Assembly (NCBI RefSeq): GCF_003334385.1
Contig: NZ_QOWN01000027.1
From: Escherichia coli
GTDB lineage: Bacteria; Pseudomonadota; Gammaproteobacteria; Enterobacterales; Enterobacteriaceae
DNA length: 61,695 nucleotides
Strand: one strand, 5' to 3'
In this document: in pieces, positions 45,235-45,686 of the stretch
Position numbering within the stretch: the stretch's first letter is position 1
Layout: every line of letters starts with the position of its first letter
The notes under the pieces: model-generated
The model's input: only the letters and a program-made list of their open reading frames with translations
Told to the model about the DNA's origin: nothing
The model's database searches: none
Made by a program: the position numbers and the translations under genes

Positions 45235-45244
45235 GATATGGGGT

Positions 45245-45628
45245 TTGGTCATTGTTAATGAGCATGACAATCATGACCGCCAACGACTGGATTCTTCCTT
45301 GGTTTATATTGGTGCGCATAATGTATATTATGTTAAATCATGTCTGAGTGATGCGAAGTGCTTTTCTGGTAGTCGTTATTCGTTCAGGGTTCAAGAACTT
45401 AAGCCTCTCCTCTTTCATAATTGGCCTGTGCAATTAGCGGGCGCGTCCTCGATTATGGCTGCACAGTCTCATCGGATTCGCTTAATTGGCGATAGCAAAA
45501 CGGTTATTGTTGATGAGATCACTCGTAATGCACAGTTTCCACTTAAGGCAAGAGCTATCACGGTGAATGGAAACGCAAGCCAGGGAACGATCGAGGCGCT
45601 AATCAATGTGATCTACACCTGGCAATAA
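45245..45628 (+). pseudogene. Fimbrial subunit C-terminal fragment fused to unrelated upstream sequence (remnant of a chaperone-usher operon)
   Basis: Only the last ~45 residues (...[45 protein letters not shown]) look like a pilin C-terminal strand. No signal peptide, usher or chaperone is present between hipA and ydeQ. Confidence 0.35.
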
Positions 45629-45686
45629 CGTCGATTCGATTTTCTTAGCCTTCTTTTTAAATCAATTTTTAACCTTAGGATATATC

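Follow-up and report, generated by a model that had tools for sequence, protein, structure and literature searches.

The Escherichia coli DNA analysed here is a whole draft contig of 61,695 bp (NZ_QOWN01000027.1; hereafter referred to as the window), in which very little DNA separates the toxin kinase gene hipA from the fimbrial adhesin gene ydeQ. The question raised by this locus is what the short interval represents and how it arose. A near-identical contig of 61,682 bp is present in assembly GCA_002190145.1, and both contig ends therefore probably abut repeats.

The left border of the interval is formed by hipA (43912-45234, + strand), an intact ORF identical to the loci encoding WP_001125439.1. 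It is preceded by an intact hipB antitoxin gene (43646-43912, + strand), whose coordinates were transferred from an annotated, 100%-identical locus (L003). The right border is formed by ydeQ (= fmlH; 45687-46601, + strand), which is intact (304 codons) according to its Pfam domains and its alignment to structure 6AOW, and which has kept its Shine-Dalgarno sequence. Further to the right lies ydeP (46935-49214, + strand; assigned from the ORF and annotated relatives), a conserved gene that borders the F9 locus on the right. With the hipA stop codon ending at 45234 and the ydeQ start at 45687, the gap (45235-45686) comprises 452 bp, the size stated in the first-pass annotation of this DNA. We consider it very likely that this interval represents what is left of the F9 (Fml/Yde) chaperone-usher fimbrial operon, and that it directly adjoins the chromosomal dif site.

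In alignments with K-12 MG1655 and the most similar complete genomes, K-12-type sequence explained all 452 bases of the gap. The closest complete genomes are 100% identical to the window on both flanks and 2,667 bp longer, and FDAARGOS_1337 shows 100% identity over 22 kb, the gap excepted. The earlier view of the gap as a deletion scar is therefore upheld: the arrangement of the window is not that of the K-12 reference, which, like the closest complete genomes, carries the additional 2,667 bp. The scar is not a single one, since the missing DNA is split over two junctions, which implies a history of at least two or three events. These junctions (J1, 45432/45433, and J2, 45487/45488) lie close to the position near 45480 at which one had been suspected.

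Collinearity with hipB and hipA extends from 43447 to 45432, 198 bp beyond the hipA stop codon. J1, a 1,900-bp deletion with 1 nt of microhomology (A), was mapped to this point, 94 bp to the right of dif, by alignment with FDAARGOS_1337 and K-12. It ends at nt 84 of ydeS and has removed the remnants of the regulator gene yneL and the usher gene ydeT, the 5′ end of ydeS and one KOPS. The DNA that follows is a 56-bp island of ydeS (nt 84-139; 45432-45487, + strand), which matches ydeS of the K-12-type and O157:H7 loci at 100%. According to the alignment, J2 is a 767-bp deletion with 1 nt of microhomology (T), which runs from ydeS nt 139 to ydeR nt 363 and leaves codon 46 of ydeS joined, out of frame, to codon 121 of ydeR. 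The sequence from 45488 onwards corresponds to ydeR from nt 363 to its stop codon, followed by ydeQ and ydeP. The ydeR 3′ fragment (nt 363-504 including the stop codon, i.e. the last 141 bp; 45488-45628, + strand; alignment and frame analysis) has lost both its signal peptide and its donor strand.

What kind of event generated these junctions? The genes ydeS (FimF-like) and ydeR (FimG-like) are paralogues, and other strains carry insertions of IS1, IS3 and IS5-family elements in this locus; homologous recombination between the two genes, or an IS-mediated deletion, could thus be envisaged. Both routes are very improbable here. The partners joined at J2 occupy non-homologous positions of the two paralogues, are out of frame and share 1 nt, and neither junction has IS ends, target duplications or repeats of at least 9 nt. 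No IS sequence is left in the gap either, as K-12-type sequence makes up the full 452 bp. Direct repeats, which the first-pass annotation had proposed to seek near 45480, are not present at the junctions beyond chance. Only chance-level imperfect repeats of 8-16 nt were found in the region 45150-45750, and the 8-mer TAATTGGC, with copies at 45418 and 45483, is no more than chance would produce. A resemblance of the ydeS breakpoint to a XerD half-site (7/11 by eye) was judged to be at chance level for AT-rich DNA. Both J1 and J2 thus have the properties of illegitimate deletions, in that microhomology is slight or missing and neither IS ends nor long repeats occur. With 0-3 nt of microhomology (counting the variant junction described below) and no IS remnants or repeats, we infer that they were produced by illegitimate recombination or end-joining, and not by a homologous or transposon-mediated process.

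The f9 operon is located between hipBA and ydeP (Wurpel et al. 2014; PMC3966885). In O157:H7 it is complete and comprises six genes (major subunit, chaperone, usher, ydeS, ydeR and ydeQ); it is disrupted in every strain of phylogroup A and is silenced by H-NS even if intact (PMC3966885). The gene order in K-12 is hipA, yneL′, ydeT′ (the C-terminal part of the usher only), ydeS, ydeR and ydeQ, and the chaperone and major subunit are absent. The K-12 layout given in the first-pass annotation, with an usher, a chaperone and subunits between hipA and ydeQ, is incorrect in this one respect. The window resembles the disrupted phylogroup-A form (ydeQRST of K-12) in that the same adhesin gene, ydeQ, is present at the conserved hipBA-ydeP site in a likewise disrupted operon. 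It is more eroded than the K-12 form, as it contains no ydeT or yneL remnant, and the adaptor genes are reduced to 56 bp of ydeS and the last 141 bp of ydeR. No periplasmic chaperone gene is present between hipA and ydeP, the major subunit gene is absent, and so is any outer-membrane usher gene, the K-12-type ydeT remnant lying wholly inside J1.

It follows that ydeQ has no usher or chaperone of its own, as had been predicted, and that its adaptor subunits are missing as well. The deletions in the window were not the cause of this condition, contrary to what had been proposed. Since K-12 is devoid of the chaperone, the major subunit and the N-terminal half of the usher, ydeQ appears to have been orphaned already in the K-12-type ancestor, before these deletions occurred. 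What they took in addition were the two adaptor genes (ydeS and ydeR) and what was left of the usher gene and of yneL.

The gap contains a 127-codon ORF with a TTG start codon (45245-45628, + strand), whose composition was resolved by frame analysis. It consists of (i) intergenic DNA from downstream of hipA, including dif, (ii) the ydeS island, read out of frame, and (iii) residues 122-167 of YdeR, read in frame. The earlier observation that the ORF is pilin-like only in its last ~45 residues was accurate, the match being confined to the last 46 residues (GDSKTV...YTWQ), i.e. YdeR residues 122-167. A Pfam scan of the whole 127-aa sequence yielded no significant match (Card1_endonuc, E 0.14, was non-significant), and a signal peptide is absent. 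An exact protein look-up identified the ORF as RCQ61099.1, annotated only as 'hypothetical protein' and found in two draft assemblies; in GCA_002190145.1 the same ORF is called as a 66-aa version. Its length also differs between sister alleles (83 aa versus 127 aa). Instead of a complete, conserved gene, an option that the first-pass annotation had kept in view, the ORF has the make-up of a frame-shifted, spurious chimera.

The exact arrangement of the window was found in none of 5,426 complete E. coli genomes. It occurs in two draft assemblies, the window itself and GCA_002190145.1, which are identical over 6.2 kb, across both junctions. Among the complete genomes, only SCU-104 (NZ_CP053284.1) has J1. 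The SCU-104 allele resembles that of the window in its identical J1, in a second junction located within the same few bases, and in flanks that differ by ~11 SNPs in 48 kb. At its second junction (J2′), nt 150 of ydeS is joined to nt 346 of ydeR with a 3-nt microhomology (GAT), and 26 bp more are kept than at J2; unlike the window, SCU-104 has also lost 84 bp from the 3′ end of ydeQ and 651 bp of the upstream autotransporter gene. A further difference between the two sequences is an 823-bp insertion in the dgcF region of SCU-104 (6821-7643 of the reverse complement, opposite 20084-20093 of the window), which has a 10-bp duplicated flank and contains no annotated IS.

Searching ENA, Logan and NCBI records for the 83-aa variant of the ORF by exact protein look-up retrieved five short metagenome/Logan contigs. 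Four of them (L027-L030) contain J1 only, with ydeS undisturbed past the positions of both second junctions; the fifth (L031) combines J1 with a different second deletion, extending from ydeS nt 295 to ydeQ nt 603. A 36-mer spanning J1 had no matches in JGI metagenome contigs.

These records also bear on whether the short gap might be an assembly artefact, or the 127-codon ORF a genuine small gene. The window is a whole draft contig, and the ORF carries its 'hypothetical protein' annotation in two records. Against this, an independent assembly (GCA_002190145.1) is identical across J1 and J2, and J1 recurs in the complete hybrid genome of SCU-104 and in the five metagenome/Logan contigs. The ORF itself is chimeric and frame-shifted, runs across dif, has no Pfam match or signal peptide, and varies in length in sister alleles. 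Both ideas are scarcely credible. The allele is natural but rare, and is not an assembly artefact; the deletion scar is real and of an ordinary type, and only this specific allele is uncommon.

The existence of alleles with J1 only, and of others in which J1 is accompanied by differing secondary deletions, indicates that J1 is older and common to a circulating lineage. It was followed by three or more distinct secondary deletions, two of which damage ydeQ. The order of events may be envisaged as follows. A phylogroup-A ancestor would have lost the major subunit, the chaperone and the 5′ half of the usher gene, giving rise to the K-12-type layout. J1 would then have eliminated 1.9 kb, including the yneL and ydeT remnants and the start of ydeS, with essentially no homology at its ends, and a second deletion would have joined the ydeS stub to the ydeR tail. 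J2 of the window is most economically explained as J2′ followed by a 26-bp loss, a route favoured by parsimony only; alternatively, J2 may have originated independently from a J1-only ancestor. What is left is an intact dif, a meaningless chimeric ORF and a stranded, intact ydeQ/fmlH.

Does the stranded adhesin gene still have a function? YdeQ is FmlH, the adhesin of F9 pili, which recognizes Gal(beta1-3)GalNAc and related glycans, and not mannose (PMC12442223). The protein encoded in the window has the two-domain architecture of FimH-type adhesins, with a FimH_man-bind lectin domain (PF09160; residues 27-171; 1.2e-77) and a pilin domain (Fimbrial, PF00419; residues 185-302). Residues 25-184 are identical at 159 of 160 positions to the crystallised FmlH lectin domain (6AOW), and the alignment with the mature lectin begins at residue 25, behind the hydrophobic leader that represents the signal peptide. 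YdeQ shares this build with FimH, the tip adhesin of type 1 fimbriae (E 1e-81 against FimH chains; ~48% identity), and differs from the FimH system in the absence of cognate assembly genes at this locus and in its glycan specificity. At the nucleotide level, ydeQ shows no differences from the loci encoding WP_000520676.1, the common phylogroup-A allele. An intact gene whose lectin domain is nearly identical to that of functional FmlH is compatible in sequence with function.

A still active YdeQ might be expressed by read-through from hipBA and be mounted at the tip of a type 1 (or other gamma-1) pilus by means of FimC, FimD and FimG. The gene is intact and has kept its Shine-Dalgarno sequence, and its product is a full-length FimH homologue. 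YdeR is most similar to FimG, and its donor strand (ADVTITVNGRVVAKPCT) equals that of FimG save for one conservative K-to-R change; FimG could thus plausibly complement the pilin domain of YdeQ. Type 1/F1C hybrid fimbriae in which minor components are exchanged have been reported. Moreover, neither a terminator-like site or hairpin nor a convincing promoter was predicted in the hipA-ydeQ interval. Read-through from hipBA is therefore conceivable and could provide ydeQ transcription. The one promoter-like match in this interval (45303-45331) was rejected, as it is a bare consensus that overlaps dif, and the region has fewer such matches than shuffled sequences. The hipBA operon is autorepressed, which counts against expression by read-through, and the f9 operon is subject to H-NS silencing in any case. 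A genomic SELEX list includes promoters for hipBA and ydeP, and none for ydeQ (PMC3946193). The match found upstream of ydeP (46705-46732) is the constitutive promoter of the same list.

The distribution of damage also speaks against a working YdeQ. The gene is truncated, interrupted or deleted in SCU-104, L031, Z503, MB30 and RM11911, as expected if it had no function, and this damage in sister J1 alleles and in other phylogroup-A strains suggests that ydeQ is dispensable. In operon-dead phylogroup-A backgrounds ydeQ shows 0-5 nt differences, which are too few to give dN/dS any power. Taken together, a YdeQ that still works on a foreign pilus appears improbable, and ydeQ has most likely fallen silent or lost its function, with selection on it relaxed.

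The 452-bp gap contains a further element, which was not mentioned in the first-pass annotation. The sequence GGTGCGCATAATGTATATTATGTTAAAT, the experimentally confirmed E. coli dif site (PMC3025954), occurs exactly and only once in the window, at 45311-45338 (+ strand), and was found in none of 100 shuffled sequences. It has the make-up of a XerC/XerD site (28 bp, comprising a XerC arm, a 6-bp core and a XerD arm) and is situated within the 127-codon ORF. All four KOPS to the left of dif are on the + strand (536, 30361, 41543 and 42323), and all four KOPS to the right are on the - strand (46002, 50556, 54312 and 55436). The window thus corresponds to the dif/XerCD-FtsK system in having an exact 28-bp dif at the point of KOPS convergence; the exact site and the switch in KOPS polarity indicate that it spans the replication terminus and the point of dimer resolution. 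The GC skew is +0.047 to the left of dif and ~0 to the right, with a cumulative maximum at ~49 kb and a plateau after ~45 kb. This is only roughly consistent with a switch at dif in a window of 62 kb, and was not adopted as proof of the site, KOPS polarity being the cleaner signal. The DNA lost here includes the KOPS that is closest to dif on the right in K-12 (116 bp away), and the loss of this KOPS would be expected to have no functional consequence. The dif site is kept in every deletion allele that keeps hipA. It is intact and presumably functional, and the deletions would for this reason stop short of it. We also think that dif is probably the only working element in the gap.

Some variation in dif and in its left-hand surroundings was observed in other genomes. 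Strains LR-45, Z1324SEC0014 and 2EC1, all of which have deletions in the F9 remnant, have a variant dif site whose first base is A and not G (AGTGCGCATAATGTATATTATGTTAAAT). In NT1F34 (~2440-2520 of the extracted locus), PCP06021, LR-71-1, cM8a (1419-1446) and a UTI89-like locus (1-3572), foreign DNA takes the place of hipBA and ends at a degenerate sequence resembling a XerD arm (ACATAAGTTAAAT) or at a dif variant with four mismatches. The foreign DNA contains type I R-M genes, a DEAD/DEAH helicase gene, SSB/phage-like genes, or a filamentous prophage with Zot/GspD. These islands at dif look like Xer-dependent integrative elements (IMEX).

Also to the left of dif, the window contains an intact 1,806-codon gene of an AIDA-like autotransporter of the ECSE_1600 family (38003-43423). 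Its orthologue yneO is a pseudogene in K-12, and the gene is frameshifted in AR_0011 and O157:H7. In SCU-104 the 651-bp deletion is accompanied by a stop codon, and several independent internal deletions were found in other genomes.

The location of the F9 remnant raises the further question of whether the deletions were promoted by their position beside dif. The largest spontaneous DSB and Holliday-junction signals of the E. coli genome flank dif (Mei et al. 2021; PMC8213236). Failures of Topo IV/XerCD decatenation, shearing at division, or the traffic of Xer-dependent elements, followed by homology-free rejoining, might there give rise to recurrent kb-scale deletions, by which any dispensable DNA next to dif would be eroded. 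Such an influence would be an overlay on neutral decay and not an exclusive alternative to it.

Deletion alleles were catalogued from genomes in which hipA and ydeQ lie within 850 bp of each other, a procedure biased towards deletions of at least ~1.2 kb. At least 16 independent alleles with deletions between dif and ydeQ were identified in complete genomes. Their left ends are all located 32-437 bp to the right of dif. Microhomology is limited to 0-1 nt at 17 of 22 junctions and amounts to 2-4 nt at four others, the last one having an imperfect 9-mer. The window/SCU-104 clade has accumulated five deletions of 26-1,900 bp within ~6 kb of dif. In the remaining ~40 kb that were compared, deletions of at least 20 bp are absent, against ~11 SNPs.

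As a crude control, synthetic junction queries were constructed from the 350 + 350 bp that flank stretches of ~2.5-2.7 kb, and the genomes with joined flanks were counted. Joined flanks were found in 21 of 5,421 genomes for the F9 remnant (adjacent to dif, on the right) and in 4 of 4,262 for the autotransporter gene (2-7 kb to the left of dif), which shows ~10 partial deletions besides. At the ETT2 pseudogene remnant (1.4 Mb from dif) and at yfaL (0.75 Mb from dif) the counts were 0/3,563 and 0/5,422, respectively.

Several breakpoints of independent alleles coincide within 0-5 bp (1924/1925, 3886/3887, 3941-3957 and 4708/4712, in coordinates of the K-12-type hipB-ydeP region). The right end of the LR-45 and 2EC1 deletions is the same as that of J1 in the window, and the right end of the RM11911 deletion is the same as the left end of J2′ in SCU-104. 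Coinciding breakpoints could mark preferred sites of breakage; according to a rough estimate they are not clearly beyond chance.

The number of independent alleles, their homology-poor junctions, the confinement of the clade-specific deletions to the surroundings of dif and the higher counts of joined flanks near this site all favour an effect of position, as do the published DSB and Holliday-junction signals and the foreign islands that abut a degenerate dif arm in three deletion-bearing genomes. The deletions cluster where the strongest spontaneous DSB signals were reported, but END-seq and X-seq of laboratory cultures served to define the published fragile site, whereas the data presented here are the footprint of natural deletion alleles alone, so that a causal link is only suggested. 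The comparison is weakened by the use of only two distant control loci and by selection that differs from locus to locus (some strains have intact ETT2 genes, and yfaL probably functions). In addition, the catalogue is skewed towards large deletions, the genomes are phylogenetically non-independent, the breakpoint coincidences (3886/3887, 3952 and 1924/1925) are not clearly above chance, and no IMEX remnant is present at the junctions of the window itself. Promotion of the deletions by fragility at dif is accordingly regarded as a tentative possibility. It is doubtful that the dif flanks constitute a natural hotspot of homology-independent, kb-scale deletion in E. coli populations, which would then reflect the fragile site or the traffic of Xer-dependent elements, with the erosion of the F9 and autotransporter genes driven largely by position and not by relaxed selection alone.

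In terms of gene content, the weight of the finding is small, as the window contributes a further rare allele of an operon whose defunct state in phylogroup A was known before. It provides a warning for annotators, since the 127-codon 'hypothetical protein' is a chimera lying across dif. The alleles form a clean natural series, from the K-12 type through J1 to the secondary deletions, in which a dead operon has been whittled away by homology-free deletions while the adjacent dif was spared. If the enrichment of deletions beside dif holds, it would explain the high variability of the 5′ side of the F9 operon, and would link the dif fragile site defined in the laboratory to genome evolution in the wild.
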